A DNA stretch of 64,000 bases from Patescibacteria group bacterium (GTDB taxonomy: Bacteria > Patescibacteriota > Minisyncoccia > Phycocordibacterales > PALSA-1337): NCBI GenBank assembly GCA_038064415.1, contig JBBTTD010000005.1, positions 2,149-66,148 of the forward strand, read 5' to 3'. Position numbers and translations under genes: made by a program. The notes under the pieces were generated by a model, which was given only the letters and a program-made list of their open reading frames with translations, was not told the DNA's origin and made no database searches. This document shows, in pieces, positions 21,914 through 57,294 of the stretch; the first letter of the stretch is position 1, and each line of letters opens with the position of its first letter.

Positions 21914-22083
21914 AGGGTAAATGTAACAGAAAACTTATAAATAGACTAACTTTTCTATATATTCTCGTAAAATAATATACCACACCCCAATTAAAAATGT
22001 CCCGCGCTTTTGGAAAAGCGCGGGACAAGAGCAAAAGTCAAAGTACAAAGCGCAGAAAGTGCACAGTGACCCAGTCTTGAGAA

Positions 22084-35368: not shown

Positions 35369-35387
35369 GTGAAGGCCTGACCTTCAC
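35369..35387. repeat. Hairpin GTGAAGG-CCTGA-CCTTCAC (family 3), directly 3' of tmk
   Basis: Identical 19-nt sequence, in inverted orientation, recurs at 40002-40020. Confidence 0.6.
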
Positions 35388-37435: not shown

Positions 37436-37456
37436 TTATTTTCTAACGATTCATTT

Positions 37457-38610: not shown

Positions 38611-38694
38611 GATACAATCAAAGTAATTAAAAGTTTGATGTAACCAAAAAGAGGCCTCCGTCTCATTTTTTCTATATTCTAAAATCTAATTGCC

Positions 38695-39117
38695 TTATTT
38701 AACTTCAACACCCATCTGTCTGGCGGTACCGGCGATAATCTTCATGGCCGCGTCAATATCGTTCGCGTTGAGATCTTGCATCTTCTTTGCGGCAATTTCT
38801 TTGATTTGGGCTTTGGTGATAGTACCGACTTTGCTGGTATTTGGTTTGCCAGAACCTTTTTCTTTGCCAATTGCTTTCAAAATTAAACTAGACGCTGGAG
38901 GGGTCTTTAAAACAAAACTGTATGTTCGGTCTTCGTAGACGCTAATAACCACTGGGATCATATCACCCATCATGCCTTTGGTGGCTTCATTGAACTTCTT
39001 GGTAAAATCACCAATATTAACACCTGCTTGACCCAAAGTCGGACCAAGTGGGGGTGCTGGAGTAGCTTTGCCCGCGGGAGCGATGACTTTTACTTTTTTT
39101 ACGACCTTTTTTGCCAT
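38695..39117 (-). CDS. rplK: 50S ribosomal protein L11
   Basis: 140 aa. [14 protein letters not shown] and the L11 C-terminal domain. Confidence 0.93.
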
Positions 39118-39162
39118 AGTGATGTGGATACTACATTAATAAACTAATTATCACAAGCCCTA

Positions 39163-39708
39163 TTAAACCTTCTTTACTTGCAAAAAATCTAGCTCCACAG
39201 GCGTCTCGCGTCCAAACATTGAAACCAAAACTTTGACCTTGCCTCGCTGGGTATCAACTTCTGAAACTTTTCCTTCAAAATCTTTGAACGGACCGTCAGC
39301 GACCTTGATCAAATCTCCCGTGGATAAATCAATAGAATGTTGAGTATTACTCTGTTGCATTCGTGAAAATAGAGTCTCAACTTCCTTGGGATCAAGAGGC
39401 ACGGGTGAAACTCCCGCGCCGACAAATCCCGTTACGCGTGGAGTATTTCTAACCACATACCAAGAATCATCAGTTACAATCATGTCCACTAAAACATAAC
39501 CAGGGTAAATCTTCTCCTCTTCTTCAACGCGTTTTCCACCTTTGACTTTAATCTTCTTTTCTGTCGGAACAATCACGGCAAAAATCTTGTCCTCCATGCC
39601 GAGAGATTCAATACGCTGTTTTAGGTTACGGGCAACGGCATTTTCATATCCCGCATAGGTATGAATAGCATACCAAGCGCGTTCCCCTGTTGTGTGTTGT
39701 TTTGACAT
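39163..39708 (-). CDS. nusG: Transcription termination/antitermination factor NusG
   Basis: NGN domain WYAIHTYAGYENAV and KOW domain (GDLIKVADGPFKDFEGKV). Confidence 0.92.
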   Translation of the reverse strand: MSKQHTTGERAWYAIHTYAGYENAVARNLKQRIESLGMEDKIFAVIVPTEKKIKVKGGKRVEEEEKIYPGYVLVDMIVTDDSWYVVRNTPRVTGFVGAGVSPVPLDPKEVETLFSRMQQSNTQHSIDLSTGDLIKVADGPFKDFEGKVSEVDTQRGKVKVLVSMFGRETPVELDFLQVKKV

Positions 39709-39746
39709 ATGGTTAATCGTGAATCTGAATTATTTATTGGAATTAT

Positions 39747-39923
39747 TTAAAACAATAATGTAAGTAGTTTAGAAAAAACAAAATCTGACAAACCGAGTAA
39801 AGCCGCGACAAAAACTGAAACTAAAATAACTAAAAGTGTAAACCTCGTAGTCTGGGCGCGAGTCGGCCAGTTCACATGATTCATTTCCGCCTTTGTTTCT
39901 TTGACATATTCAGTGATTTTCAT
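39747..39923 (-). CDS. secE: Preprotein translocase subunit SecE
   Basis: 58-aa ORF, below the ORF-track cutoff: MKITEYVKETKAEMNHVNWPTRAQTTRFTLLVILVSVFVAALLGLSDFVFSKLLTLLF. Single TM; conserved position upstream of nusG. Confidence 0.7.
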   Translation of the reverse strand: MKITEYVKETKAEMNHVNWPTRAQTTRFTLLVILVSVFVAALLGLSDFVFSKLLTLLF

Positions 39924-39994
39924 AGTGTTGGTATTAAAAAACCCCTCTGGGGATTACCTGTGTATAGTATAGGATCGGGAATGTAAAGTCAAGA

Positions 39995-40025
39995 CAAAAA
40001 AGTGAAGGTCAGGCCTTCACTTTTT
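39995..40025. terminator. Bidirectional terminator AAAAAA-GTGAAGG-TCAGG-CCTTCAC-TTTTT (family 3 hairpin)
   Basis: 7-bp stem flanked by an A-run and a T-run, directly 3' of gene 40033-40827. Confidence 0.65.
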
Positions 40026-40032
40026 ATCTACT

Positions 40033-40827
40033 TTACCTTATCTCATAAGTAATTGAGACATTTGAAGTAATCTTTTGCTCACCTGTTGGAATTTCTGGAG
40101 CAACTGCTGGCGTTGTGGCAGAAGACTTCAGAAACATTGCATCTCCTCCCATCATCTCGCGACCATAGATTGGGTTATCACTAGAATCATAGAAACTGGT
40201 AATCCTAACAATTCTGACTCCAAGTTGTTTTGCTAATGCTTTAGCTTTTGATTGAGCATCGGTAATAGCTTTGGCGCGCGCGTCGGCCTTGACTTTTTCT
40301 ATGTCGTCAATAGAAAACGAAAGTCCATTTACATTTTGAACATCAAGAGAACCAATGGTACTGAAGATCGCTCCAGCTTTTGCCAAATCACGGACCTTAA
40401 CTTCAATTGATTGAGAGACATCATAACCTGTCAAAACGGATTTTCCTGGTGGACAATAATTCGTACTGCACACACTATCTTGATAGTCATAATGTGGATT
40501 TATTGAATAGGAAGTAGTTTTGATATCCTTATCGGCAACGCCAGAATCACGCACCGCCTTTAGAGCCGCGTTAATTTTGTCAGTTGATTTTGATTGTGCT
40601 TCAGCTACAGTCTTGGCAATTTCGGTAATACTGAATGAAAAAGTCGCCACATCTGGAATAGAAATCGCTTCACCCTTCCCATTAACTGAAATTGTATTGT
40701 AAATGGGATTGTCTTTGCCGACATATCCGATAGATTTTATTTCTTTGACGGAAATAACGGCTAGAAATATGGCTAAAATCACCCCAACCCACATACCAGT
40801 TTTCCACACTTTTTCTTGAATTGTCAT
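40033..40827 (-). CDS. SIMPL/DUF541-domain periplasmic protein (YggE-like)
   Basis: 264 aa. N-terminal TM/signal, sequence pattern of DUF541. Confidence 0.75.
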   Translation of the reverse strand: MTIQEKVWKTGMWVGVILAIFLAVISVKEIKSIGYVGKDNPIYNTISVNGKGEAISIPDVATFSFSITEIAKTVAEAQSKSTDKINAALKAVRDSGVADKDIKTTSYSINPHYDYQDSVCSTNYCPPGKSVLTGYDVSQSIEVKVRDLAKAGAIFSTIGSLDVQNVNGLSFSIDDIEKVKADARAKAITDAQSKAKALAKQLGVRIVRITSFYDSSDNPIYGREMMGGDAMFLKSSATTPAVAPEIPTGEQKITSNVSITYEIR

Positions 40828-40922
40828 GTTGTTAAAAAATAGTTAATAAAAATATATGTACATAATATCGCCTTTTACATATATGACGCAAGAGAAGTCC
40901 ACTACTTACATTTTCCGCAGGT

Positions 40923-41840
40923 CTACCCTGCGGAAGAAACATCAATTAAGTTCTCAAACAACGCAAAAACTGTCATTGGCCCTACTCCGCCGGGTACAGG
41001 TGTGATTGCGAAAACTATTTCTTTGACACCTTCAAAATCAACATCACCAACCAACTTCTTATTTTCTATTTCATCTTCTAGTTTTTCTCCATAAACGGTG
41101 TTGAGGCCTACATCAATAATAATTTGTCCAGCTTTTACATGATCAGCGCCTATCAATTTTGGTTTGCCAACGGCGACAATGATAATGTCTACCTTTTTTG
41201 TCTCTTTTGCCAGGGCTACAGTCTTACTATGACAAACAGTGACAACTGCTCCAGAATCTTTACACATAACTGCAATTGGTCTTCCAACCATATCAGACCG
41301 ACCAATGACTACAACTTTTTTACCAGACAGATTAATATCGTAATATTTGAGAAGCTCTTTCACGCCCCTAGCGGTTGCGGGTAAAATTGCGCCAGCTTTA
41401 TGATTACTCCACGCTTCAATCTGAAAAGCAGTCAGGCCATCCACATCTTTCTTTGGATCAATTGCGTCAATAATTGTTATCTTGTCTAAATGCTCTGAAA
41501 TTGGTAATTGAACAATTATTCCATTGACATTATTGTCATCATTGAATCCCTTTATAAGTTCAACCAATTTTTCTTGAGTGACATCTGATTGAACTTGAGT
41601 ATGCAAAACATCAACACCGATTTTTTCCGCAAAATTCTTTTTGGCACGAATATAAGAGGCAGAATCTTCACGGTCGCCAACTTGAATAATGGCTAAATTC
41701 GGTTTATTAGAGAGACTTTGAACTTTACTTATAAGTTCCTTTACTAGAGCTTCCCGAGCGATTTTTCCTGAAAGGAGTTTGGCGGACATAAAGAAAGCAT
41801 AACATATTTCTATTTTTGGCAAATTGTTATAAGTCATCAA
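40923..41840 (-). CDS. folD: Bifunctional methylenetetrahydrofolate dehydrogenase/cyclohydrolase
   Basis: FolD motifs (KxxxxxGxD, PGGVGPMTV). Probable true start at the internal Met near nt 41789 (MSAKLLSGK). Confidence 0.9.
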   Translation of the reverse strand: MMTYNNLPKIEICYAFFMSAKLLSGKIAREALVKELISKVQSLSNKPNLAIIQVGDREDSASYIRAKKNFAEKIGVDVLHTQVQSDVTQEKLVELIKGFNDDNNVNGIIVQLPISEHLDKITIIDAIDPKKDVDGLTAFQIEAWSNHKAGAILPATARGVKELLKYYDINLSGKKVVVIGRSDMVGRPIAVMCKDSGAVVTVCHSKTVALAKETKKVDIIIVAVGKPKLIGADHVKAGQIIIDVGLNTVYGEKLEDEIENKKLVGDVDFEGVKEIVFAITPVPGGVGPMTVFALFENLIDVSSAG

Positions 41841-41925
41841 TGTGACCTATCAATTTAACAGCCACCTCAATTGTATATGAAAATAGCGCAGAGACAAGCT
41901 CTGCGCTAAGTGAAGGGAACAAGGT

Positions 41926-42723
41926 TTAAGCTTTAGGCTTAACGGACATTGCCAGACGAGCAGCCATGAGCGAATGCGAATGAGCATGCTTGAGCCAGTA
42001 GAACCTGACCTCGCGGAAACCCGGATACGGACTCCAGCGGCCGCTGGCAACCCCGCCACCCGGAAGGCGGTTCTTGGGGAACCATGTCCATGTTTCCAGA
42101 TCAAGATAATCCTTGAAAGCGAAGTAGCGAAGGCCGAAAGCCAGTGCATACCCACGCAATTCCAAGTACGGCTTGCCGTCAGCATTGAGTTGGTTCGAAG
42201 ACTGACCATAAGTGCCTTCAGTCGGACGAATTGAGTTTTCAATGATCTGGAGCGTCGGTTGGCTGAATGCTTCAGACCGCTTATACTCCATAACATTGCT
42301 TTCTTCGTACACTGAAAGTCTTTGACTCTTGAGTGCCTTCTCAACCACTTGATGGTTGTCGAGGCCTGGGTCAAATGCCAACAGTACATCCTTCCACGGG
42401 AGTTCGGCGGGAAAATCAAACATCTCCCGCAAATTGGCCGTGACGCCGAGGAATTTTTTGGCGAAACGTTCTGTGACTGGAATTATTTCATCCAGATTGG
42501 TCTGCTTCGCTTTGAATGTTCGAGGAAACTCGAACACTGGAACTGGAGATGTTACGACTTGCGGCGTTGACTGTTCCACGAAAACGCTTTCAATCGCCTT
42601 CCAGTATGGATGGTCAGAGTTTCCGATGATGTTCTGCACATCACCATGTTCGGGGTTAAATGATTGGATCTTGGTGGCCGTACGACCAGCCAAAGCCATG
42701 ATAGTTTCAGGACTTGCTTTCAT
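41926..42723 (-). CDS. Hypothetical protein in a locally GC-rich segment (possible horizontally acquired gene)
   Basis: 265-aa ORF. The 41850-42850 segment is visibly GC-richer than its flanks and both strands carry long overlapping ORFs, so frame choice is uncertain. No recognised motif. Confidence 0.45.
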   Translation of the reverse strand: MKASPETIMALAGRTATKIQSFNPEHGDVQNIIGNSDHPYWKAIESVFVEQSTPQVVTSPVPVFEFPRTFKAKQTNLDEIIPVTERFAKKFLGVTANLREMFDFPAELPWKDVLLAFDPGLDNHQVVEKALKSQRLSVYEESNVMEYKRSEAFSQPTLQIIENSIRPTEGTYGQSSNQLNADGKPYLELRGYALAFGLRYFAFKDYLDLETWTWFPKNRLPGGGVASGRWSPYPGFREVRFYWLKHAHSHSLMAARLAMSVKPKA

Positions 42724-42857
42724 AGTTATAATCGCACATAGAGTGACCGTGTCATCCCGACAAGGGAGCTTATCAGTGTGTCAGAGAGCGATTCTGTGTG
42801 TATCCTATCATAATTACATATATAAGTCAATACCATGAAAAACCCCTATGCTATGGC

Positions 42858-43865
42858 TTATTTTGTAGACCACCTAGCAAAAATGCCCGCCGGCAACAGT
42901 CGCGCCTGCGTTCCTTCTTTATTTGTCTCTTTATCTTGTGATTCTTGACCCTTAGTTCCTGATTCCTGTATAACCAACTCCCCCATTTCAATCTCGCCGC
43001 CATATTTATTTTTCAATTCAAGTAAATTGTTTGCATAGGCGATCGCTGAATAGCCCGCTGAATATCCATTAACCAAGAAAAATGACGGTTTGTTTTTCAA
43101 TAATTTTTTACAATCTTCCATGAGTGACAGAAAATGTTCTTCAACCTTCCAAAGTTCATTCGTCGGACCATGGCCAAAAGCTGGTGGATCCATGATAATG
43201 CCGTCATATTTTCGTTCACGTTTGATTTCTCTTTCAACAAACACGCGCGCGTCTTCAACAATCCAACGGATCGGCGCGTCTTTGAGTCCTGAAATTTCCG
43301 CGTTTTCACGAGCCCAAGCAACCGCGGATTTTGAACTGTCTATGTGAACAACTTTAGCTCCAGCTTGCGCGCAAGCTAGCGTAGCGCCTCCCGTGTAGCC
43401 AAAGAGATTTAATACTTCGATGTCGCCATGTTGCGCACTCTCTCGGCGCGAAGAGTTCTCCCTTCGTTTCGCTTCGCTCAAGTCGGGAGAATCTGTCGCA
43501 CCTACGAGTGCGACTGACGATATGAGTTTCCTAAGCCACTCCCAATTTGGCAACTGTTCCGGAAACAAGCCAGTATGTTTAAATGCTGTGGGTTTGATCC
43601 AGAATTTTAAATCGCCAAAAGAGATCTGCCACTTAGCTAGCACATTCTTTTTGAGCGACCAGCTCCCCTCTTTTTCTCCACGAGTAAAATTACCATCAGA
43701 TTTTTTCCACTCTGAAGTTGACAATTTCTTCTCCCACAAAGCTTGAGGATCTGGTCGTGATAAAACTATCTTGCCAAATCGCTCCAATTTTTCCCCATCA
43801 CCAGAATCTAGAAGTTCATAGTCGGAAGAAGCGGCGGTTATGAGGATTTGAGAAATGTTAGACAT
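42858..43865 (-). CDS. Class I SAM-dependent rRNA methyltransferase, RlmI/RlmK-like (COG1092 family), with an in-frame GC-rich hairpin-element insertion
   Basis: VLNLFGYTGGATLACAQAGAKVVHIDSS...DGIIMDPPAFGHG...FFLVNGYS matches the YccW/RlmI MTase core. Nt ~43430-43516 form an ~87-nt GC-rich palindromic element encoding ...SPDLSEAKRRENSSRRESAQHGD... Confidence 0.78.
   Translation of the reverse strand: MSNISQILITAASSDYELLDSGDGEKLERFGKIVLSRPDPQALWEKKLSTSEWKKSDGNFTRGEKEGSWSLKKNVLAKWQISFGDLKFWIKPTAFKHTGLFPEQLPNWEWLRKLISSVALVGATDSPDLSEAKRRENSSRRESAQHGDIEVLNLFGYTGGATLACAQAGAKVVHIDSSKSAVAWARENAEISGLKDAPIRWIVEDARVFVEREIKRERKYDGIIMDPPAFGHGPTNELWKVEEHFLSLMEDCKKLLKNKPSFFLVNGYSAGYSAIAYANNLLELKNKYGGEIEMGELVIQESGTKGQESQDKETNKEGTQARLLPAGIFARWSTK
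43430..43516. repeat. GC-rich ~85-nt hairpin repeat element (family 4), copy A, inside the methyltransferase ORF
   Basis: Reverse complement aligns at roughly 85% with 50836-50915 (shared GCGACAG-TTCTCCC...GGGAGAA...CGCCGAGAG core). Confidence 0.6.
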
Positions 43866-43870
43866 ATTTT

Positions 43871-44134
43871 TTATTTTTTTCTATATACATCTTTGCGGTG
43901 ACCTATAGTGATAAAAATTGCTTTTGATTCAGCCTCAAAATAAAATAAGGCTCTATATGAGCTTGTTATACGCAATGAAAAAGTTCCAGAATCTCCCGCT
44001 AATTTTTTTAAATGTAATCTTGAATCTTTTTGATGCTTCCTAAATCTGATTTCTTGTTTCCGAAACAGATTTTGAATCTTGGTCGGAAGTCTCTTGAACT
44101 CACGATAAAATTCATCAGTAAATTTTATAGTCAT
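43871..44134 (-). CDS. Type II toxin, RelE/ParE (YafQ/RelE-like) family
   Basis: 87 aa. LHLKKLAGDSGTFSLRITSSYRALFYF...IGHRKDVY signature. 4-nt overlap with the upstream antitoxin ORF. Confidence 0.8.
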   Translation of the reverse strand: MTIKFTDEFYREFKRLPTKIQNLFRKQEIRFRKHQKDSRLHLKKLAGDSGTFSLRITSSYRALFYFEAESKAIFITIGHRKDVYRKK

Positions 44135-44361
44135 AGAGTATCATGAACTCGTCCGACCTTCATGTCTCTATAACCTCGACGAATAGACTGTTTTAAAGAA
44201 ATAGGATTCTCATATTCATTTATATATTCAAGAGGTATTGTATCTGAAAGTGTGGTTAACACATGTCTAGAAAGTTCAACCAACGAAAGCCCGTATCGAC
44301 TTGCAATATGTGCCAGACGAGTTTTCTCTTTTTTAGGAAGTGTAATCGTAAGTGTAGTCAT
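44131..44361 (-). CDS. Type II antitoxin (RHH-like)
   Basis: 76 aa. Overlaps the toxin start (ATGA overlap). Confidence 0.6.
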   Translation of the reverse strand: MTTLTITLPKKEKTRLAHIASRYGLSLVELSRHVLTTLSDTIPLEYINEYENPISLKQSIRRGYRDMKVGRVHDTL

Positions 44362-44430
44362 GTGAACATACTACCACTAAAAAAGGCAAAATCAAGTTAG
44401 TATTCAATGATCAAAAAGTATTTGCATTGA

Positions 44431-44916
44431 TCATTGTATCATTGATATTTGATCATTAACTTTATATTTCTTAAACACCACACACGCCGTCACAAACAAA
44501 ATCGTAGAAGTCATTACTGATCCAAGACAATACACGCAATATGATTTGATAATAAAAACTTGAAGAAAGACAAACCAAAGAGACGCTAGAATTCCAAAAA
44601 CAGTAAATAACATAGCCCATTTTAGAATTTCTGTTTTCTTGGTATCCAGATATGCAAAAGCTCCGACTAGAATAATAAAATAGTAGATCGCTCCTAAAAG
44701 TGAAACGGGGATGCCAATTATTGAAGCATAAACACTTGTCAGAACCAGTTCACATCCACCAATAATTGAACAGGGAGGAATAACTCCTTGATAATGTTCA
44801 ATCACAAGATAGGTAGAATCGGCAAAGCCAATCAATGCAATAATAAGTACGAATATTACTAGACTATTTGGCACCGCCCGAAGCGGTCGCGTCAATAAGT
44901 GCTTTAAATTGTTCAT
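44431..44916 (-). CDS. Vitamin K epoxide reductase (VKOR) family protein
   Basis: 161 aa, 4 TM, CxxC active site PPCSIIGGCEL and C-terminal CVYC. Overlaps the DsbA ORF by 53 nt. Confidence 0.8.
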   Translation of the reverse strand: MNNLKHLLTRPLRAVPNSLVIFVLIIALIGFADSTYLVIEHYQGVIPPCSIIGGCELVLTSVYASIIGIPVSLLGAIYYFIILVGAFAYLDTKKTEILKWAMLFTVFGILASLWFVFLQVFIIKSYCVYCLGSVMTSTILFVTACVVFKKYKVNDQISMIQ

Positions 44917-45523
44917 ATCCTTGAGGATTAACTATCACTTTACCATTCACGAAAAATGTGGGGGTTGAATTGACACCTAGCGTGTCTCCTTCATCACGAT
45001 CTCTCTGGATCCGAGCTTTTATTTCAGCGGAACCAAAATCTTTTTTGTATGCCGTCATATCTAAATTCAGACTTTCCGCGTATCCTTCAAAAATAGCCGA
45101 AGCGGTATTGGAATCTTGCCAGACAGTCTGATTTTCAAAAAGAAGTTTGTACATGTCCCAAAATTTACCTTGTTTGCTGGCGGCTTCCGAGGCCTGGGCG
45201 GCAAAAATTGAATTTTTGTGTGGCAGTGGAAACAGTGGGAAGTGGCGATAGACAAAACGAACCGTAGTTGATGCTTCTTTGGTTAGGCGTTCAATTATCG
45301 GATAATAGAGAGCACATGCTGGACACTGAAAATCACTATATTCAATAATAGTGACTGGAACATTGGCTGGACCAAGAATGTGGTCTGTGGAAGTTGCCTC
45401 TGAAGGAGTACCGATCCCAGGTCCGACCTTGGGTGCTTTGTTCATGGCAACAGCAAGACCCCAGACAATTAGGGCTAGAATCAATAGAAAAAATATCCAA
45501 AAAATGATGTGTTTTGTGTTCAT
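44864..45523 (-). CDS. DsbA-like thiol:disulfide oxidoreductase
   Basis: 219 aa. N-terminal TM anchor, thioredoxin-fold CPAC motif (FQCPACALY). Confidence 0.85.
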   Translation of the reverse strand: MNTKHIIFWIFFLLILALIVWGLAVAMNKAPKVGPGIGTPSEATSTDHILGPANVPVTIIEYSDFQCPACALYYPIIERLTKEASTTVRFVYRHFPLFPLPHKNSIFAAQASEAASKQGKFWDMYKLLFENQTVWQDSNTASAIFEGYAESLNLDMTAYKKDFGSAEIKARIQRDRDEGDTLGVNSTPTFFVNGKVIVNPQGYEQFKALIDATASGGAK

Positions 45524-45561
45524 GAGAGATATTGTTGCATAGAATCGCGTTATTTTCTAGG

Positions 45562-45588
45562 GCAAATCAAGGTCGGACCTTGATTTGC
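45562..45588. repeat. 27-bp perfect palindrome GCAAATCAAGGTC-G-GACCTTGATTTGC (family 1)
   Basis: 13+1+13 inverted repeat in the gap between the DsbA start and the stop of gene 45590-46144. Confidence 0.65.
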
Positions 45589-45589
45589 A

Positions 45590-46144
45590 CTAGAATAAAT
45601 TAGCAAACCAAACTAGCGCGCAAATCCCTAAAAAGTTCATGACAAATGAAATAGGGATAAGTAATGACAGGCGGGTCTTTGAAATTCCTAAAAGAGTCAA
45701 GCCCAATTCATCCGGTAATGGTGAAGCGATGATAAACGCGCCGATAATCGGAGAAAGCCATTTCATAAAACCAAGATGGAAAGAACTCAAAATATGTTTG
45801 ACAATTGAGGGCTTCAGAGAATTTTTCAAATCATCGGTAAATTTGTCACGAATAAACAAAAACAAAATTAAATCACCGCATAAAGCTCCGAGAGCTCCCC
45901 AAAAAGCAACTGTTTGCAGGGGCACACTTTCAATAATCCTAGCCAAAGCAAGAGACGACGGCGCGATCGTAAACGCGGAAGTAAAAAATATCCCAGCCAC
46001 AAAACTGGCAAACGCACCGCTTCCTAAAATATATATGAAACTATCTAAAAGCCCGCCTTGAGAAAGTAGTACGGCAATCACGATACCAGATAAAATAAAC
46101 AGTAAATCTTTTAGTAATTCGTGTCTGGCTTTAATGCGACGCAT
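45590..46144 (-). CDS. Hypothetical integral membrane protein
   Basis: 184 aa, ~5 TM helices. Confidence 0.55.
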   Translation of the reverse strand: MRRIKARHELLKDLLFILSGIVIAVLLSQGGLLDSFIYILGSGAFASFVAGIFFTSAFTIAPSSLALARIIESVPLQTVAFWGALGALCGDLILFLFIRDKFTDDLKNSLKPSIVKHILSSFHLGFMKWLSPIIGAFIIASPLPDELGLTLLGISKTRLSLLIPISFVMNFLGICALVWFANLF

Positions 46145-46171
46145 GGTTGTTAAATTATAGCAATCAACACT

Positions 46172-46561
46172 TTAATCCTGAAACTCAATTTCAAAAGGAT
46201 ACATGCCCATTCCGCAACTACCCCGAAGTATTCCAGATGTACTTGTACCAAGATTTATGTCAAAACTTCCCGATGATTGTAATAATTTACTAATACCCAT
46301 ACTTGGAATACGCACAGACGCCGAACAATCAAAAGTCCCATTGGTACTGAATCGCAAAATCGTGGGTAATCCGGATTTGGCGACGCTTTTTCGTGGTTGA
46401 TACCCTCCGCGCGCCCGAATCTCAATAATTTGTTTTCCATCTACAACGCTAACACTGTTGATCGGTGCGCCAGATTTGTCAGAAAAATTGGTCTGCGCGA
46501 GTAAAAATGCCCCACCGACAAGCGCTATCGCAATAATAATAGAGATGACTGTTGATTTCAT
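46172..46561 (-). CDS. Cupredoxin-like small copper-binding protein
   Basis: 129 aa. Signal/TM anchor; C-terminal FDCSASVRIP...GSCGMGMY resembles the cupredoxin_1 family common in copper-resistance loci. Confidence 0.6.
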   Translation of the reverse strand: MKSTVISIIIAIALVGGAFLLAQTNFSDKSGAPINSVSVVDGKQIIEIRARGGYQPRKSVAKSGLPTILRFSTNGTFDCSASVRIPSMGISKLLQSSGSFDINLGTSTSGILRGSCGMGMYPFEIEFQD

Positions 46562-46570
46562 AAGTAGTTT

Positions 46571-47599
46571 TTAGAAATTAAATATCGGAGGAATGATACC
46601 GATTATAACCAAACTATTGATAATATTGAAGATGGCGAACATAATGACCACGAGACCGGCGGTCTTGAAGAAAATCCCCGATTTTGAACTATTCTTTATG
46701 CTAAAAGAACTAAAACTAACTAAAGCCAGAACCGGTAGCGTGCCGAGCGCGAACGCCAGCATAGTTAGTCCTCCTTCAAGAAAATTTCCCGTGCCAAGAG
46801 TATAAAGTTGCATTGATTGGGTAAAACCACATGGCAAGAAAAATGTGGCGATACCCACAAGTAACGGCGTGATCGTATGGTTGAGCTTTGAAACACCATG
46901 AGCGTATTTGGCGATAAATTTTGGCATAGACGGCTGAAGTCTTTTGGCCCAATGAAATGTATCAAGAAGATTTATGCCAAGAATAAACATCACGATACCG
47001 ATTATCAAACTCAAAATAAACGTGGCGGAAGTATTGAGAGAAAACGCGGATCCAAGCGCGCCAATTATTCCACCAAAAACAAAAAACGAAACGATGCGTC
47101 CACCATGAAACATCAGTTGTGGCTTGAATTTATCTCCTTCTTTGGCGAATGTAGCGGACATGGAAAGAAGCAATCCACCGACGACAGCCATACATGTAGA
47201 CAAAGAAGCAATTATTCCAATAATAAACGCTGCTCCGTAAGTCACATTTCCCGCATCAACCAGATTTACAATGCCAAGTTTTTGCAAAAGTACAAATAGA
47301 ATCGCAAAACCCAGAGCAATTGGCACAGCAATTTTAAAATCACTCCACTTAACAATCTTTTGATGTCTTTCAATTGAAATGGTATATCCGTGAGGTTTTA
47401 AAGGTACGGTTAATCCTTTTGCAATTTGTTCCAATGTTTTAGCACCAAAATCACCCACGACTTCCACTGAATGATTCACGAAACTTGATTTAACATAGGT
47501 AATTCCCGGAAAATCTTTTAATTCACTTTCAATCATGAGCACGCAGGCATTGCAGTGCATTCCGTGAACATGGAATGTATGTGTTTTTTGTTGTGACAT
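46571..47599 (-). CDS. HMA (heavy-metal-associated) domain fused to a DsbD/CcdA-like membrane domain
   Basis: 342 aa. N-terminal GMHCNAC metal-binding motif. Membrane part with two TM cysteines (LSTCMAVVGG, FFLPCGFTQ). Confidence 0.7.
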   Translation of the reverse strand: MSQQKTHTFHVHGMHCNACVLMIESELKDFPGITYVKSSFVNHSVEVVGDFGAKTLEQIAKGLTVPLKPHGYTISIERHQKIVKWSDFKIAVPIALGFAILFVLLQKLGIVNLVDAGNVTYGAAFIIGIIASLSTCMAVVGGLLLSMSATFAKEGDKFKPQLMFHGGRIVSFFVFGGIIGALGSAFSLNTSATFILSLIIGIVMFILGINLLDTFHWAKRLQPSMPKFIAKYAHGVSKLNHTITPLLVGIATFFLPCGFTQSMQLYTLGTGNFLEGGLTMLAFALGTLPVLALVSFSSFSIKNSSKSGIFFKTAGLVVIMFAIFNIINSLVIIGIIPPIFNF

Positions 47600-47608
47600 G
47601 AGTCGTGA

Positions 47609-47857
47609 TTAACTAAGATCTTTTTTCTTAGACTCAAATTCTTCTTTGTTAATTTCTCCTTTAGCATAACGTTCCTTTAAAATATCAAGCGCGTTGGATG
47701 AATTTAGGCGTAAATGTTTGCCGCTGATCTCGCGTACAATCCAGACAATAAAAGCAATAAGTAAAATCCAGAAAGCGATCATCATAATCCCGCCCCCAAA
47801 CCAGCCCATTATATTCCCAGTATCCCATCCACCATAATTAGTATATCCGTACATCAT
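47609..47857 (-). CDS. SHOCT-domain membrane protein
   Basis: 82 aa. One TM plus C-terminal LDILKERYAKGEINKEEFESKKKDL (SHOCT pattern). Confidence 0.65.
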   Translation of the reverse strand: MMYGYTNYGGWDTGNIMGWFGGGIMMIAFWILLIAFIVWIVREISGKHLRLNSSNALDILKERYAKGEINKEEFESKKKDLS

Positions 47858-47904
47858 AGTATCTTAATCAATTGTTAATAATTATATTAGTCAATATTTA
47901 GCTA

Positions 47905-48885
47905 TTATATCGCACATCCACTCTGTTGTCGTGTTGGAGCGGGTGCTGATTGTACACCTTCTACACCACATCCACTACCACTTGTTGTTGAACTGCTCGG
48001 AGTGCTGACTTGTGATGCAATGCGAGCATAACCAGATGCGCTTGAATAGTTTACCCCGAGCATTTCCCGCAGGTTTACATCTTTCCATCCAACTCCATTG
48101 TTTTTCATATACATAGCAATCGTCATATAGGTATCTGGAAACCAGTAGGAATTCACCGCCAGAGCCGTCTTCCACATATCCTGCTCGCCCACTCCTTGCG
48201 AAGCCATTAGTTCAAGAAGTCCCAGCATAGCCATACCATGATTACAATCGGGAAAATGAACAGAGTTTCCACAACATGGTCGATATATGCCATGGGATAC
48301 TTTTTCCACTAATGCCTGCTGATCCTCGGTCAGAGTGAAGAATGTGTGGTAACTGTAATGATCCATAGCATTACCTTGTGCCAGTGTCCAGCCACCTGTT
48401 GAAGCAAAGTTTTGTGCCCCGCCGTATTTTGGATCCATCATTTCCCCTTTTTCAAGAATAGGACTTTTTTGCGAGAGACCCAGCGCCCAAAAGAGGTTAA
48501 GTAAAACGCCAGCATTATCACGAGTGATGATGAGCTTTCCAGTCGTAGTGCCGAATAATAATCTCTGGTATTCGTCAGTGAATGCGCCACGATTGGCATA
48601 CAGCGCCTTGAAATCAGCACCCCGAATGGCCCCGGCTTTTATAAGATTTTGCCCCATAATGTCCCATGATACGGGCAAAATTACGCCGCCGGATGGGATT
48701 ATTGATTCTTCAAGTGCCAAAATACGAGCGTCCTGAGTCACAGAATCTTTTGTAATATCAACCGATGATTTTTGAAACTGACGGTTTGAAAAATTGTTGT
48801 AGACCAATGCAATAGCGACAATTGCGCCAGCAATGATAATCGCTAGAGGCAATGGAGATTTGAGTCCTTGAATTTGTTGTTCCAT
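47905..48885 (-). CDS. Membrane-anchored Cys-rich hypothetical protein
   Basis: 326 aa. N-terminal TM. RPCCGNSVHFPDCNHGMAM cysteine cluster. Thr/Ser-rich C-terminal tail. Confidence 0.55.
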   Translation of the reverse strand: MEQQIQGLKSPLPLAIIIAGAIVAIALVYNNFSNRQFQKSSVDITKDSVTQDARILALEESIIPSGGVILPVSWDIMGQNLIKAGAIRGADFKALYANRGAFTDEYQRLLFGTTTGKLIITRDNAGVLLNLFWALGLSQKSPILEKGEMMDPKYGGAQNFASTGGWTLAQGNAMDHYSYHTFFTLTEDQQALVEKVSHGIYRPCCGNSVHFPDCNHGMAMLGLLELMASQGVGEQDMWKTALAVNSYWFPDTYMTIAMYMKNNGVGWKDVNLREMLGVNYSSASGYARIASQVSTPSSSTTSGSGCGVEGVQSAPAPTRQQSGCAI

Positions 48886-48892
48886 ATATTTT

Positions 48893-49453
48893 TTATTCTT
48901 TACAACAGTCTGCTAACTTCTTCATGATTTCTTCCAAGCTATCACTTTGCTTGTTGACACTGCTGACCCCCATCGAATTGCCAGTCGCCTTCTGAATGTC
49001 CACTTCTTCTGTTACCTTCTTCACGCCAATAAGCTTCAATTTGAGCGCCCAGAAAATAGTATAGGTCTTGTAGGCTTTCTCAAATGTCTGACGAGCAAGT
49101 TTTTTCTTATTTTCTGATTGTAGTTTATTTCCCACTTCAATCAATCGCATGGTAACAGCCAAAAGGTGTTTGGACGCGCACCATGTCTCCCCTTCATGGT
49201 TGGGCATAAGCTGCGCGAGCAATTCTTTACGCAGATTGCGCACCTCTTGTGCCGTGTCAAAGTATTCTTCTTTTTTTGTCTTGACGCCAGTAAAGAAGAA
49301 GTGCTCCTCAAGTGAGATCAGGTTCATGACGGCAATGCTTAAGTCTTCGGTAGTTGAAAGATCAACACCGCCTTCTTTTCTGGCTAATTCTATTTTTGTC
49401 ATAAATTCTTCAAGTGACTCGAGGTCCGACCTTGGAATGTTTTGTGATTTCAT
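48893..49453 (-). CDS. Hypothetical cytoplasmic protein (N-terminus encoded by a family-1 palindrome)
   Basis: 186 aa. Codons 6-12 (IPRSDLE) are encoded by CCAAGGTCGGACCTCGAG at 49419-49436. Confidence 0.5.
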   Translation of the reverse strand: MKSQNIPRSDLESLEEFMTKIELARKEGGVDLSTTEDLSIAVMNLISLEEHFFFTGVKTKKEEYFDTAQEVRNLRKELLAQLMPNHEGETWCASKHLLAVTMRLIEVGNKLQSENKKKLARQTFEKAYKTYTIFWALKLKLIGVKKVTEEVDIQKATGNSMGVSSVNKQSDSLEEIMKKLADCCKE

Positions 49454-49463
49454 GTTTATTAAG

Positions 49464-50243
49464 CTAGATGAATAATACTAAGATCCCAATAATGACCATA
49501 ACGACACCGGCATAGAGATGAACATTCTTCATGTTCGTCTGTTTCCATTCTGTGACTTTGCCGATGAGTGCGGGATTGGCGGCAATCCAGAGAGTTGCCA
49601 CGAGCGGAACTATCAGAATAACATTGTACAGAATAAGGTAACCAAATCCTCTGAAATAAGTCACCTGATCATGCAGAAGTCCGATTACCATGAGGTATGG
49701 ACCGCCCATGCACGGGAACTGACAGAGACCGACGAGAAGACCAAGCACGAAGGCGGCTGGCAGTGATACGGTATTGATGAGCTTACCCATCGATCGATGC
49801 GCCGCATCGGGAATTTTGAGTTTGATCGGGAATCTTGGAAAGATCGCACCGAGAAGATTGAGTAGTCCGAAGATGATGAGTAGTGCCGCGCCGAGTTTGC
49901 CCATGAAGTGCGGAACATTGAAGATGTGGATGACCTGCAATAGACCGATACCGATGGTGAAGTACGCGACGAATATACCGGCAATGTAGAGTCCACCGAT
50001 CTGCAAAATTTTTCCTCTGGTCATTTGCAAACCAAACAAGAATGCGATGGTGATGAGAAGAATGGAGAACGAGCATGGATGAACACTGTCCAGTACGGAC
50101 GAAAATAGGACCAGTGGTAAGAGCCAGGAGCCACCTTGCGAGATAGCCCAAATCATCTCAGCTGTGCCGGGTGCGTATTTGAGTACCACGATAGCGAGGA
50201 TGGTTAGAACAGCTATGGTGGCTATAATAATAAGTTTTTTCAT
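49464..50243 (-). CDS. ccdA: Cytochrome c biogenesis protein CcdA / DsbD transmembrane-domain family
   Basis: 259 aa, 6 TM, two TM cysteines in VHPCSFSIL and FPCMGGP. Confidence 0.8.
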   Translation of the reverse strand: MKKLIIIATIAVLTILAIVVLKYAPGTAEMIWAISQGGSWLLPLVLFSSVLDSVHPCSFSILLITIAFLFGLQMTRGKILQIGGLYIAGIFVAYFTIGIGLLQVIHIFNVPHFMGKLGAALLIIFGLLNLLGAIFPRFPIKLKIPDAAHRSMGKLINTVSLPAAFVLGLLVGLCQFPCMGGPYLMVIGLLHDQVTYFRGFGYLILYNVILIVPLVATLWIAANPALIGKVTEWKQTNMKNVHLYAGVVMVIIGILVLFI

Positions 50244-51894: not shown

Positions 51895-54267
51895 TTATAA
51901 TTTCTTACTTTTAATTCGAAGGGAATTCCCGACAACCGACACCGATGACATAGCCATTGCAAACCCGGCGATTACTGGACTGAGTAGCCAGCCGAAGAAT
52001 GGGAAAAACACTCCGGTCGCAAGCGGAATACCGACAATATTATAAATAAACGCCCAGAATAAATTCTGTTTAATTCCTCGCATAGTCATCTTTGAAAGCT
52101 TGATTGCCTTCACAAGCTTTGAAATGTCACCGCCAAGCAAAGTGATTCCAGCTGATTCAATTGCCACATCCGTACCAGTCCCCATTGCGACACCGACATC
52201 GGCTTGCGCGAGCGCCGGTGCGTCATTCACCCCATCACCAGCCATAGCTACGATATGACCTCGCGATTGAAGCATTTTTATTTTCGCCAATTTATCTTGC
52301 GGAAGGACATGGGCAACGACATCATCAATACCAACAAGCGCGGCCATGTGTTTCGCGGCTTTTTCGTCATCGCCAGTAAGCATAACCACTTTAATACCGA
52401 GCTTGTGAAGATTGGCAACAGCCTGTTTAGATTCAACCTTTATTTCATCGGCGACCATAACAAAACCGAGCACTTTCTCTTTAGTCGCAAGAATAACCGG
52501 AGTTTTACCTTGCGCGGTAAATTGCTCAATCTTCGTGGAATCAAATGATAGCCCGAGATCTTTTATAAGCTTGGTATTACCAACATAATATTCAATGTTT
52601 TTAATTGACCCTTTCAGCCCTTTTCCTTGAATGGCTTCAAAACTTGAAACATCTTCCGCGACGATGCTCTTTTCTTGCGCATAATTAACAACCGCGTGAG
52701 CAATTGGATGTTCCGACATTTTTTCAAGTGAGGCCAGAATAGATATGAATTCTGATTCCCCAAGTCCAAGGTCCGACCTTGGACTGATTTCAATATTAAC
52801 GAGAGTCGGTCGTCCAATCGTAATCGTCCCAGTTTTATCAACAATAACCGTATCAACTTTATGAAGTTTCTCTAAAGTCGCCGCGTCCTTGATTAAAATT
52901 CCTTCTTTGGCGCCTTTACCAACTCCAACAATGATCGCGGTTGGCGTGGCAAGTCCTAGCGCGCATGGGCAAGCGATAACCAAAACACCCACAAATGAGA
53001 CTAGCCCAAAAGATAGTGCTTGCGAAAATCCAAGTGAACCGATACCAATAAGTAACCACAAACCCAGAGTAAGAAACGCGATGACTAAAACAATTGGCAC
53101 AAAAACACTTGAAATTTTATCCGCCAGAGCTTGAATTGGAGCTTTGCTTCCCTGCGCCTCTTCTACCATTTTTATTATTTGAGCAAGCAAGGTCTCTGAT
53201 CCGATTTTGGTAGCCCTAAATTTGAAATACCCACTCGTATTTATCGTACCGGCAACTATATTGTCTCCAATTTTCTTTTTAGCTGGCATCGGTTCGCCCG
53301 TCACCATTGACTCATCTACAAAAGATGAACCATCAGTAATTATTCCATCAACGGGAATTTTTGCGCCCGGCTTTATGACGATAATATCGCCATGTTTAAC
53401 ATCATTTACGGAAATCTCCATTTCTTTACCATCACGAATAACTAATGCTGTCTTTGCCTGTAAATTTAGCAACTTTTCTATAGCATCACCGGTCCTAAGT
53501 TTAGATCGTGCTTCCAAATATTTCCCAAGTGCGATAAAAGTAATGACAATGATCGTCACGTCATAGTAAGTATTTTCAATATTTATGAATGATTTAAGCG
53601 TATCTCCAAACGCGCTTATTGAAAGACTGTAAAGATATGCGGAAACAGTACCGATACCAATCAGAGTATCCATGTTTGCTTTACCATATCGCAAAAAACG
53701 GTAGAATCCGAGAAGGTACGGTTTGCCAACGACAAATAGCACATAAGTTGCCATCAGAGGCATCGCAAAATCAAAAAACTCTTTGACCACGCCACCCATT
53801 TCCAAAATAATGTCGTATCCCGCTAAGATGCTCCACCCCATGACAAAAACACTGATCACCGCTAACGGAATCGCGGAGATTACTTTTGCTTTCATGTCTT
53901 TAATTTCAGCGAGTTTTTCTTGCTTTGATTGACTAAGGCCTAAATGGGTCGCGTGTTCATCCGCGGACATGCCCATTTGTTCAGCTGACATCTGCATTTT
54001 ATTGGCATTGGCGGTTGTAGATCTAGATAAAGTCTTAACTATTGAATCATTCGTGTTTGGAATAATAAGTGAGTACCCAAACTTCTCAATTTTCCGCGAG
54101 AGATCGGTCGGATTTGTTTTTGACTCATCAAATGCCACCTTTGCCGTCTCGGTCCCATAATTGACTTCAATGGAATGAACGCCATCAATTTTTTTGAAAG
54201 TCTTTTCAATGATACTGGCGCATGAAGCGCAGTGCATTCCTTTTATTCTGTAAGTTTTGGTATTCAT
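51895..54267 (-). CDS. copA: Copper-translocating P1B-type ATPase
   Basis: 790 aa. N-terminal HMA (GMHCASC), CPC in TM6 (IACPCALGLATP), DKTGTIT, HP, GDGVNDAPAL. Confidence 0.93.
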   Translation of the reverse strand: MNTKTYRIKGMHCASCASIIEKTFKKIDGVHSIEVNYGTETAKVAFDESKTNPTDLSRKIEKFGYSLIIPNTNDSIVKTLSRSTTANANKMQMSAEQMGMSADEHATHLGLSQSKQEKLAEIKDMKAKVISAIPLAVISVFVMGWSILAGYDIILEMGGVVKEFFDFAMPLMATYVLFVVGKPYLLGFYRFLRYGKANMDTLIGIGTVSAYLYSLSISAFGDTLKSFINIENTYYDVTIIVITFIALGKYLEARSKLRTGDAIEKLLNLQAKTALVIRDGKEMEISVNDVKHGDIIVIKPGAKIPVDGIITDGSSFVDESMVTGEPMPAKKKIGDNIVAGTINTSGYFKFRATKIGSETLLAQIIKMVEEAQGSKAPIQALADKISSVFVPIVLVIAFLTLGLWLLIGIGSLGFSQALSFGLVSFVGVLVIACPCALGLATPTAIIVGVGKGAKEGILIKDAATLEKLHKVDTVIVDKTGTITIGRPTLVNIEISPRSDLGLGESEFISILASLEKMSEHPIAHAVVNYAQEKSIVAEDVSSFEAIQGKGLKGSIKNIEYYVGNTKLIKDLGLSFDSTKIEQFTAQGKTPVILATKEKVLGFVMVADEIKVESKQAVANLHKLGIKVVMLTGDDEKAAKHMAALVGIDDVVAHVLPQDKLAKIKMLQSRGHIVAMAGDGVNDAPALAQADVGVAMGTGTDVAIESAGITLLGGDISKLVKAIKLSKMTMRGIKQNLFWAFIYNIVGIPLATGVFFPFFGWLLSPVIAGFAMAMSSVSVVGNSLRIKSKKL
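52763..52785. repeat. 23-bp perfect palindrome AGTCCAAGGTC-C-GACCTTGGACT (family 1) inside copA, translated as SPRSDLGLG
   Basis: 11+1+11 inverted repeat within the copA ORF, between the DKTGT and HP motifs. Confidence 0.7.
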
Positions 54268-56223: not shown

Positions 56224-56643
56224 TTATGACAAATCAATAATATATAAACTAATAAATTTCTCGACAGCATCGACTGTTGAGTCTTTAAGTTTTGCATTAC
56301 TTTCCGCTACCCATTTTGCAAAATTATATAATTCTTGATTACTTATTTTTAACCATTTAGCATTATCAACCAGAAAAAATAACATAGTAGAAACGGCGAT
56401 CCTTTTGTTACCATTTTGAAAAGGATGATTTTTTATCATCAAATAAAAAAGTATAGCGGTCTTTTTTACTAAACCTCGGTACAAATCCTTACCTCCAAAT
56501 CGTTGAAATGGTTGCACGAGACATCGCTCTAGTGCATTTGGATAACGAGTGACGAAATCAGGAATTGGCTCATCATATGCCATGAGCTTCTTTGCTAAAT
56601 CATAAGCAATATATTCAACATCAACGACTGATAATATTTTCAT
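56224..56643 (-). CDS. doc: Doc (death-on-curing) / Fic-family toxin
   Basis: 139 aa. Fic/Doc motif HPFQNGNKRIAV (HxFx[D/N]GNKR). Confidence 0.85.
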   Translation of the reverse strand: MKILSVVDVEYIAYDLAKKLMAYDEPIPDFVTRYPNALERCLVQPFQRFGGKDLYRGLVKKTAILFYLMIKNHPFQNGNKRIAVSTMLFFLVDNAKWLKISNQELYNFAKWVAESNAKLKDSTVDAVEKFISLYIIDLS

Positions 56644-56648
56644 GAAAA

Positions 56649-56906
56649 TTATTCTTTGCCCAACATTTTCAGAGCTTCTCCGTATTCTTTTACGGTCTTA
56701 TCTATAGATATCTCAATTTCCTTCTTTCTATTCGGAGACAAAATAACACCTAAAACTTCACTTAAATCTGATTGTTCAATAACATAATTACGACCAACTT
56801 TTTGGGCCTTAATTTCGCCACTTTTAATCTTCTTGAATACAGCAATACGACTAATACCAAGAACCTTGGCAACTCTGGCTGTTGAGAGCAATTCCTTATT
56901 TTTCAT
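56649..56906 (-). CDS. HTH (excisionase/MerR-like HTH_17) DNA-binding protein, probable antitoxin partner of Doc
   Basis: Start taken at internal MKNKELLSTARVAKVLGISRIAVFKKIKSGEIKAQKVGRNYVIE. The longer track ORF would run over the tRNA-His gene. Confidence 0.55.
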   Translation of the reverse strand: MKNKELLSTARVAKVLGISRIAVFKKIKSGEIKAQKVGRNYVIEQSDLSEVLGVILSPNRKKEIEISIDKTVKEYGEALKMLGKE

Positions 56907-56960
56907 GAGTAAAGTATATATTATGTTAACCAAGATTGCAATGGTTAACATAGAAAGCAT

Positions 56961-57036
56961 TGGGGGTGCCCAGCGGGAATCGGACCCGCAACGCCAGTTC
57001 CACAAACTGGGGTTTTACCACTAAACTATGGGCACC
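56961..57036 (-). tRNA. tRNA-His (anticodon GTG), CCA encoded
   Basis: Cloverleaf: acceptor GGTGCCC/GGGCACC, anticodon loop TTGTGGA, T-stem GCGGG/CCCGC, 3' CCCCA. Confidence 0.8.
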
Positions 57037-57210
57037 ATATAACAAACTGTTGTGCTAAACTAAATTACTAATATGTCGGCGCTTGCTCATTTATACCAGA
57101 TTTATGGTTACTTAGTCGAGCTAACGCATAGAACGACGACGATCTATTGAGAAACGCGATCGTCATGACCGGTACCCTATTTCGTGTCCACTTTATGGGG
57201 TCCAGATCAG

Positions 57211-57294
57211 TGCGCAGGAGAGGAATCGAACCTCCATACCCGAATGGGCGCTACCACCTCAAGGTAGTGCGTCTACCAGTTTCGCCACCTGCGC
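57211..57294 (-). tRNA. tRNA-Leu (anticodon GAG), long variable arm
   Basis: Acceptor GCGCAGG/CCTGCGC, anticodon stem-loop CTACC-TTGAGGT-GGTAG, T-loop GGTTCGATTCC, 84 nt. Confidence 0.8.

Follow-up and report, generated by a model that had tools for sequence, protein, structure and literature searches.

The window analysed here is a 64-kb stretch of contig JBBTTD010000005.1 from a member of the Patescibacteria, also known as the candidate phyla radiation (CPR), in which genes and spacers carry copies of a palindromic repeat family built on the core AGGTCSGACCT (S, C or G). The core occurs six times, at 11795, 30642, 45419, 45570, 49422 and 52769 (about 1 per 10.7 kb), and was absent from all of 100 dinucleotide-preserving shuffles of the window, in line with the claim of a preliminary description of this DNA that the copies form a genuine repeat family above chance; that description had counted at least four copies and lacked those at 11795 and 45419. 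Extended outwards, four of the cores become perfect palindromes of 35, 27, 23 and 15 bp, the three longest with the same extents as previously described, while at 45419 and 49422 the palindrome is limited to the 11-mer and the flanks are imperfect, as had been noted for the latter copy. The arms are specific to each copy and perfectly paired, such that, as also described previously, the flanks vary and yet the palindrome is kept. The family supplies five of the nine longest perfect hairpins of the window (arms ≥10 bp), four of the six exact cores are located within open reading frames (ORFs) and all copies are singlets, with no inverted doublets among them. An Rfam scan of the window returned five tRNAs only and no match at the palindromes.

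Two of the perfect palindromes are intergenic. The 35-bp copy TTTTTAATAGCGAGGTCgGACCTCGCTATTAAAAA (30630-30664; DNA hairpin energy of -15.7 kcal/mol) sits 10 bp past the stop of ORF 30674-31093 (minus strand) and 10 bp before the start (30620) of the isoleucyl-tRNA synthetase (IleRS) gene, and the 27-bp copy GCAAATCAAGGTCgGACCTTGATTTGC (45562-45588) directly follows the stop of ORF 45590-46144 (minus strand), 39 bp before the DsbA start. Within genes, the 15-bp palindrome CAAGGTCCGACCTTG (11793-11807) is translated as K-ARSDL-D in FtsK (10202-12532, plus strand), where it falls in the variable linker that precedes Walker B, and the 23-bp palindrome AGTCCAAGGTCcGACCTTGGACT (52763-52785) encodes SPRSDLGL, in the context ISPRSDLGLG, in a variable loop just past the DKTGT phosphorylation motif of CopA (51895-54267, minus strand). 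The core with imperfect flanks at 49419-49436 provides codons 7-11 (PRSDL) of ORF 48893-49453 (minus strand), which reads MKSQNIPRSDLE, and may instead belong to the 5' untranslated region if the true start of this ORF is Met18. The bare 11-mer at 45419-45429, with one-base-bulged flanks (CCC-AGGTCCGACCT-TGGG), is read as PKVGPG in a DsbA-like thioredoxin (44864-45523, minus strand), within the linker that follows its N-terminal membrane helix. The in-frame translation as PRSDL reported earlier for CopA and ORF 48893-49453 thus holds and FtsK shares the RSDL frame, while the DsbA-like copy is read in another.

Two centre-variant relatives add to the six exact cores, both with the same arms as the 30630 copy (AGCGAGGT...ACCTCGCT) around the centre CTC/GAG. 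These are the 23-bp hairpin TGAGCGAGGTgagACCTCGCTCA (17509-17531), inserted in tatD (minus strand), and the degenerate member TTAGCGAGGTCTCACATCGCTAA (4762-4784), which is intergenic, downstream of ORF 4854-5921 (minus strand), and matches the reverse complement of 17509-17531 at 20 of 23 positions. The outer-arm difference between the two is mirrored (T..A against G..C), and the same mirroring extends across the three sister copies, with TGAGCG..CGCTCA at 17509, TTAGCG..CGCTAA at 4762 and ATAGCG..CGCTAT at 30630. Both had been proposed as variants previously, together with 4154-4166, which was rejected as its sequence, GAGACC-A-GGTCTC, has the reversed arrangement. A candidate sister subfamily of uncertain membership consists of GTGAAGGcctgaCCTTCAC (AAGG-5 nt-CCTT; 35369-35387), 4 bp past the stop of ORF 35391-36044 (minus strand), and the similarly uncertain AAAAAGTGAAGGtcaggCCTTCACTTTTT (39997-40025), a terminator-like sequence just past the stop of ORF 40033-40827 (minus strand) that holds the 19-mer of 35369 in the opposite orientation. 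The second-longest hairpin of the window, a perfect 30-bp hairpin with 14-bp arms (TGTCCCGCGCTTTTggAAAAGCGCGGGACA, 21998-22027), is unrelated to the family.

The copy in tatD is a frameshifting insertion. The gene is broken into two ORFs (17489-17956 and 17145-17492, minus strand), each half of which matches PF01026, and the break coincides with the palindrome at 17509-17531. Removal of the 23 bp, or of any 3n+2 nt that contain the palindrome, restores a single TatD ORF reading PLMLHVRKDAYQEVIDIL, which fits TatD homologues in the region of the H-x-R-(D/E)-A motif. The earlier statement that one copy disrupts tatD is correct for this centre variant, and the split gene was present in all sampled contigs.

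The other intragenic and spacer copies are largely missing from relatives. PRSDL is present in four of 120 CopA orthologues (78-80% identity), most of which read NLSDLKDEEL and are four residues shorter, and RSDL is present in none of 120 FtsK orthologues, where the motif site is a hypervariable linker. Similarly, the 27-bp palindrome at 45562 is absent from the spacer upstream of DsbA in all 11 relatives compared. The copy within the DsbA-like gene also lies in a variable linker and is missing from orthologues. Because they are missing from orthologues and relatives, the CopA, FtsK and DsbA-spacer segments are lineage-specific additions as opposed to conserved coding sequence, which answers a check that had been proposed for these proteins. 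One CopA-orthologue locus (L123) shares the same CopA copy, including its arms, and has two further copies, with the one at a second CopA site reading GCT GAG GTC GGA CCT CAG against GCT GAA AAT CAA in the nearest relative (L236). At the CopA site of L125 (10001-12334) there is a decayed motif, CCAGGGTCTGACCTTGG, with 2-3 mismatches and with no intact motif in 22 kb, a pattern that would be consistent with repeat decay after loss of a transposase. The site orthologous to that of the 45562 palindrome, just past the stop of the gene upstream of DsbA, is occupied in the relative L147 by a different 35-bp hairpin, TGACATCTGTATCACtctggGTGATACAGATGTCA (7796-7830).

Contigs with an identical CopA were recovered from 0.1-μm filtrates (H41 and H51) of the Hainich groundwater observatory, one of which (71,391 bp) is 99.995% identical to the window, and the proteins of this genome have NCBI accessions around MEK7609846-MEK7609858. 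Beyond this site, a scan for CAAGGTCSGACCTTG in one genome per species (185,579 species, 596 Gb) identified at least 118 stretches. Approximately 84 of the matches listed belong to CPR genomes of many classes, including Saccharibacteria, Kaiser-, Lloyd-, Taylor-, Nomura-, Woese-, Levy-, Beckwith-, Moran-, Adler- and Campbellbacteria, WWE3 and others. Among the matches listed, those in CPR genomes extend into perfect palindromes as long as 47 bp, and 8 kb often contain several, while those outside the CPR are bare 15-17-mers, one per locus, and look like chance occurrences, with uniform base composition predicting ~1,100 chance matches of CAAGGTCSGACCTTG in the whole collection. Viral contigs had eight bare 15-17-bp matches, on GC-rich contigs and at chance level, and the element is not phage-borne.

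A sample of 673 kb of motif-rich CPR loci contained 146 exact cores and just 31 one-mismatch variants. In these loci, the 9-mer GGTCSGACC is nearly always embedded in AAGGTCSGACCTT, and 146 copies have C or G at the centre, in about equal numbers, against five with A or T. By comparison, 80 related Paceibacteria loci totalling 810 kb, picked by means of the DsbA gene and not the motif, held a single core, and the 22-kb CopA-orthologue loci L125 and L236 held none. The core [C]AAGGTC(C/G)GACCTT[G] has a patchy distribution and is specific to a subset of the CPR. With 810 kb of relatives nearly free of the motif, a uniform host function across the CPR, such as an uptake signal or the binding site of a universal protein, was dropped as an explanation. 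One Paceibacterota contig (L084) has non-coding clusters of cores at 120-350 and 1890-2030, among them three neighbouring units that repeat every 27 bp (TCTCCAAGGTCGGACCTGTGGCAAA); the clusters are arrays derived from elements of the repetitive extragenic palindromic (REP) type.

Within the 673-kb sample, for which ORF calling was crude, the 146 cores were divided between ORFs (81) and intergenic DNA (65). As the latter makes up 14% of the sequence, cores are enriched approximately 5-fold between genes. Their density is highest in convergent spacers (1.28 per kb), followed by tandem (0.68) and divergent (0.34) spacers, half of the intergenic copies occur ≤45 bp from a stop codon, and published REPs have the same spacer distribution (PMC3733652). 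There were 29 inverted and three direct doublets in these other CPR genomes, and 12 of the inverted doublets possess complementary outer flanks resembling those of REPINs (doublets of REP sequences in inverted orientation). The motif contains no stop codon in any frame and is found in three frames, with 44 of the 81 coding copies in the RSDL frame (p = 1.5e-4). Conservation across the family is limited to the apical 13-15 nt, with the outer arms specific to each copy.

The patchiness of the motif across distant lineages motivated the search for a transferable driver, using an all-against-all clustering of the ORFs from motif-rich CPR loci. The most widespread ORF family encodes a ~220-aa protein, and motif copies cluster around its gene in L011, L043 and L059. 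The protein matches PF01797 (Y1_Tnp, ‘Transposase IS200 like’; E ~1e-10), and its best NCBIfam match is REP_Tyr_transpos, the REP-associated tyrosine transposase (RAYT), at 43 bits, under the 80-bit cut-off. An HUH motif (HFH) and the motif Y-x-H-x-N-P (Y149) are invariant, in alignments of 33 and of 52 homologues. A single RAYT sequence had no match among PDB sequences and a profile was needed, which reached the TnpA of ISDra2 (E 1e-3) and TnpA-REP of E. coli (4ER8; E 0.9). An AlphaFold model of one member, P0121 (pLDDT 87), has as its best PDB fold match 4ER8, the structure of TnpA-REP bound to a REP hairpin (E 5e-7), with the ISDra2, IS608 and IS200 transposases ranking after it. Based on these profile and model matches, the ~220-aa protein is identified as a Y1 HUH transposase of RAYT-like type.

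In at least five CPR genomes the RAYT-like gene has the palindrome at either end, 24-44 bp away from the start codon and 9-30 bp away from the stop codon. Genes flanked on both sides are present in L011 (Kaiserbacteria), L043 (the same as L207; a metagenome-assembled genome (MAG) from Hainich), L059 (another Hainich MAG), L065 (Saccharibacteria), where the upstream copy is a degenerate doublet, and L219. Judging from the gene layout, a RAYT-like gene flanked by palindromes has the anatomy of a REPtron. A possible link to an IS200/IS605-like TnpA had been put forward in the preliminary description, and is found here in the form of Y1 HUH transposase genes that, in other CPR genomes, have this palindrome on both sides. 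The AGGTCSGACCT palindrome also occurs in-frame within the RAYT-like ORF, in two variable loops, the first of which is the low-confidence segment of the P0121 model. In L219, both loops contain tight doublets 17 nt apart, which read EVRPRWRSDL and EVRPGSRSDL, and peptide footprints of the motif (V[RG]P or RS[DN]L) were detected in 83 of 115 RAYT-like homologues, against a background of 0.19 and 0.02 per 1,000 residues among the homologues of CopA and FtsK, respectively.

In other CPR clades of RAYT, the upstream, internal and downstream positions are occupied by palindromes of different sequence, including GGGTGTtggACACCC, GTCGGAGCTCCGAC, the 33-35-bp AGGTGCGACCTATGsCATAGGTCGCACCT and AAGGAGACTCCTT (loci L010, L041, L201, L203 and L221), with the extra copy in the RAYT ORFs of L010 and L201 located in the region where the AGGTCSGACCT clade also has its internal copies. 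The hairpin thus varies together with the enzyme, which suggests that the two co-evolve. The location of the gene was compared in two lineages. P0121 and P0144, which are 68% identical, occupy the same slot of a type IV pilus cluster, between the pilin/PilD and PilC/PilB genes, and this cluster, of competence type, encodes a prepilin peptidase, pilins, PilC and PilB/T (L207, 9078-11330; L219, 2869-6452). All 17 contigs with P0121 share one genomic context, and for no RAYT was more than one context seen. A shared slot at 68% identity argues for vertical, single-copy inheritance, as in RAYTs, and not for hopping of the kind seen in insertion sequences (IS).

Taken together, the palindromes are probably REP-like miniature mobile elements spread by a RAYT, a Y1 HUH nuclease acting on single-stranded DNA, with transposition inferred from family membership and the tatD insertion. 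Under this interpretation, the core would fold to a hairpin on single-stranded DNA at the replication fork, where the RAYT would recognise the hairpin apex and nick and rejoin the DNA by means of its HUH/Tyr site, such that the element is copied to new sites. Copies that break genes would be purged, except in dispensable genes such as tatD, and those that persist would be found in intergenic 3' regions and in-frame in flexible loops, such as the linkers of CopA, FtsK and DsbA.

Several observations weigh against spread by a RAYT. A GTAG, CGTC or other conserved tetranucleotide was not found within 8 nt on either side of 154 palindromes, and the palindromes are perfect, as opposed to imperfect, up to a sharp edge beyond which pairing is at chance level. 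Orthologues with and without the motif can be of equal length (DsbA and L127; CopA of L123 and L124), which has the look of replacement and not of simple insertion, though at 60-80% identity these genes and spacers are too diverged to distinguish a clean insertion from a replacement. No close strain provided an empty site, with the contigs L001 (99.5% identical) and L002 (identical) keeping the motif at all four of the sites covered. Finally, tblastn and profile searches in all six frames found no RAYT gene or remnant in the window, nor do the 7 kb of the contig outside the window contain one. P0121, which derives from the same aquifer, was rejected as the RAYT of this genome and belongs to other MAGs, based on its tetranucleotide correlation with the window (0.86, compared to 0.99 within the same genome), a differing coverage ratio and protein accession numbers ~37,000-50,000 apart. 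If the palindromes of the window were spread by a RAYT, the gene has to be encoded in another part of the genome or was recently lost.

Several other origins were considered for the palindromes. They may be the ends, or solo ends resembling miniature inverted-repeat (MITE) or palindrome-associated (PATE) transposable elements, of an autonomous IS200/IS605-type IS, in place of REPs mobilised by a domesticated single-copy RAYT. The Pfam family matched is that of IS200-like transposases, the sequence profile ranks ISDra2 TnpA over 4ER8, and many homologues occur on ~1-kb contigs, as would be expected of collapsed multi-copy elements, though this last point weighs little given that Logan contigs are short in general. 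Such an origin is unlikely, as the syntenic slot is shared at 68% identity and P0121 occurs in a single context, the ~220-aa protein has a C-terminal extension, with TnpA-REP as its best fold match and the RAYT model as its best NCBIfam match, and the short palindromes vastly outnumber the genes. It is also rather improbable that the motif is a word comparable to an uptake signal or to the highly iterated palindrome HIP1, which would accumulate genome-wide by point substitution and bias (competence uptake, or a methylation or repair drive) and would not be transposed. Natural competence has been reported for CPR bacteria (PMC12455944), and a word of this kind would fit with the equal-length orthologues described above, the 2-3-mismatch version at the CopA site of L125, the absence of stop codons from a motif that is present in three frames and the near-equal use of C and G at the centre. 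The motif is nonetheless sparse (~1 per 10 kb) and patchy, with one copy in 810 kb of relatives, it is found on either side of RAYT genes in at least five genomes, and it has produced a 23-bp frameshift in tatD. A drive acting on a word also does not predict sharp-edged perfect palindromes of up to 47 bp, and the scarcity of one-mismatch variants relative to exact cores argues in the same direction.

Ordinary functional hairpins, whether intrinsic terminators, mRNA stabilisers or the operator of a dimeric regulator, could have a common core by function and without mobility. Most intergenic copies are located just 3' of genes, hairpin energies reach that of the 30630 copy, and 39997-40025 has the A- and T-tracts of a bidirectional terminator. 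This is very unlikely to be the explanation, considering that more than half of the exact copies in both the window and the CPR loci are inside ORFs, the T-run of the 30630 copy is on the wrong side for a terminator, one copy disrupts tatD and the orthologous spacers and genes of relatives are without copies; the association with RAYT genes would also be left unexplained. Lastly, the occurrence of (P/A)RSDL in three proteins of the window and the excess of coding copies in the RSDL frame could reflect a selected peptide common to several proteins. This is effectively refuted by the identical codons used across copies, even though arginine, serine and leucine each have six, and by the presence of the same DNA between genes and in two other frames, and the motif is rare or absent among the 120 orthologues of CopA and FtsK, respectively; its probability is negligible.

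Within the RAYT interpretation, there is a more specific possibility for how the element is copied. One arm could be made as a mirror copy of the other, through fold-back or template-switch synthesis or through hairpin-templated correction, a proposal that draws on the perfect and copy-specific arms, the equal use of C and G at the centre, the mirrored arm changes and the equal length of some alleles. A CPR-specific lineage of RAYTs would then read only the apex of a perfect hairpin and propagate it by fold-back ‘mirror-copy’, with self-templated arms and a centre that alternates between C and G (flip/flop), for which the closest analogy is hairpin transfer by the HUH Rep proteins of parvoviruses. 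Fold-back copying is speculative and, on balance, doubtful. If true, it would explain the sharp edges of the arms, the mirrored substitutions in the sister copies at 17509, 4762 and 30630, the same-length ‘overwriting’ of linker codons and the cognate hairpins kept in-frame in the transposase gene, possibly for autoregulation, and would represent a new transposition chemistry for the Y1 family in highly streamlined bacterial genomes.

The genomes of CPR/Patescibacteria are ~1 Mb in size and are considered to have shed their selfish DNA. Mobile palindromes spread by a RAYT would mean that a repeat and transposase system persists in such minimal genomes, where it has added peptides to essential proteins (FtsK, CopA and DsbA) and broken tatD, and that REP-RAYT biology reaches well outside the Proteobacteria. 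A natural variant without a GTAG guide bears on how Y1 enzymes choose their sites, and the pairing of enzyme and hairpin is a candidate sequence-specific tool for single-stranded DNA, of the HUH-tag type. The motif itself is a marker of strains and lineages and probably causes breaks in the assembly of CPR metagenomes.

Several other features of the window and its surroundings were observed. A complete histidine-phosphatase domain (His_Phos_1, residues 533-699, E 3e-29) interrupts the catalytic domain of the IleRS (1218 aa; 26964-30620, minus strand) midway. An identical 19-bp element with two GATC-containing 8-mers (TTGATCAAgatTTGATCAA) is present at 4106-4124 and 17034-17052 and could be a common operator or another small repeat. 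Between rplS and copA there is a strain-variable islet (56224-57005) that adjoins tRNA genes at 56965-57294; the window and the H41 contig have a Fic and HTH_17 pair, which is replaced by a 163-aa ORF in the H51 contig (99.5% identical; L001, 7306-7797). A diversity-generating retroelement (RVT_1 reverse transcriptase and bAvd; L214, 13757-15159) is located 3.8-5.2 kb past the right end of the window, and all three long contigs end at this element.

As for known systems, the motif was not found in a bacterial context in the literature, where the 11-mer appears only in unrelated eukaryotic papers, nor was a RAYT or REPIN linked with CPR names, and a phylogenomic survey of the HUH superfamily mentions none of the CPR names looked for. 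The phenomenon had been put forward in the preliminary description as undescribed, which does not stand, as in-frame intragenic REPs are known in Opitutus terrae and Rickettsia conorii, with the Rickettsia palindromic elements (RPEs) RPE-4 and RPE-6 being CGTC REPs (Di Nocera et al. 2013, PMC3733652). Similar to the CPR copies, these intragenic GTAG/CGTC REPs are singlets and dimers translated in-frame in known genes, have been argued to lie in flexible linkers and may be annotation artefacts where N-terminal. The CPR family is untagged, differs in sequence and phylum and is associated with a RAYT-like gene, whereas the CGTC REPs have no known transposase.

The parallel drawn previously with RPEs is apt inasmuch as RPE-1 is likewise palindromic selfish DNA inserted in-frame in protein genes, at surface loops or tolerant sites, comparable to the linkers of CopA, FtsK and DsbA. 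The RPE-1 elements of Ogata and colleagues (2000 and 2002) are reportedly ~100-150 bp in length with a consensus specific to Rickettsia and are not known to have a transposase, while those of the CPR span 11-47 bp and are associated with a Y1 transposase, and the closest kind is instead the REP/REPIN-RAYT type. The IS200/IS605 elements (IS608 and ISDra2) share the HUH/Y1 superfamily and the recognition of hairpins on single-stranded DNA at the replication fork, but are autonomous and multi-copy, with a TnpA of ~130-150 aa and imperfect subterminal hairpins with guide tetranucleotides. HIP1 of cyanobacteria and the DNA uptake sequences (DUS) and uptake signal sequences (USS) are also short words over-represented in coding and non-coding DNA and tolerated in several frames, though at ~1 per kb throughout a clade, compared to the ~1 per 10 kb, patchy distribution, extended palindromes and transposase link of the CPR motif.

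The greatest resemblance is to the REPs and bacterial interspersed mosaic elements (BIMEs) of E. coli with TnpA-REP, and to the REPIN-RAYT system of Pseudomonas. These share with the CPR family the short dispersed palindromes, the inverted doublets and, among intergenic copies, a preference for 3' spacers, as well as a Y1 HUH gene flanked by repeats at a fixed syntenic locus, and the best fold match of the CPR protein is to TnpA-REP itself. A GTAG/CGTC tetranucleotide at the foot of the hairpin is a defining feature of REPs (PMC3733652, PMC3479197), and E. coli TnpA-REP needs the guide tetranucleotide for binding and cleavage (PMC3479197), whereas the CPR family lacks a 5' GTAG guide. Canonical REPs are imperfect stem-loops conserved over the whole sequence within a genome and are usually species- or genus-specific, while the CPR hairpins are perfect, with a conserved apex and variable stems, and share a core that spans classes. 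About half of the CPR copies are also intragenic, and the CPR RAYT gene has in-frame copies in two of its own loops. The phenomenon is accordingly not new in kind; what appears to be new is the AGGTCSGACCT family and a probable system of the REP/REPIN-RAYT type in the CPR, whose repeat is a perfect hairpin with a conserved apex and no tag, copies of which lie within host genes as well as within the transposase gene.

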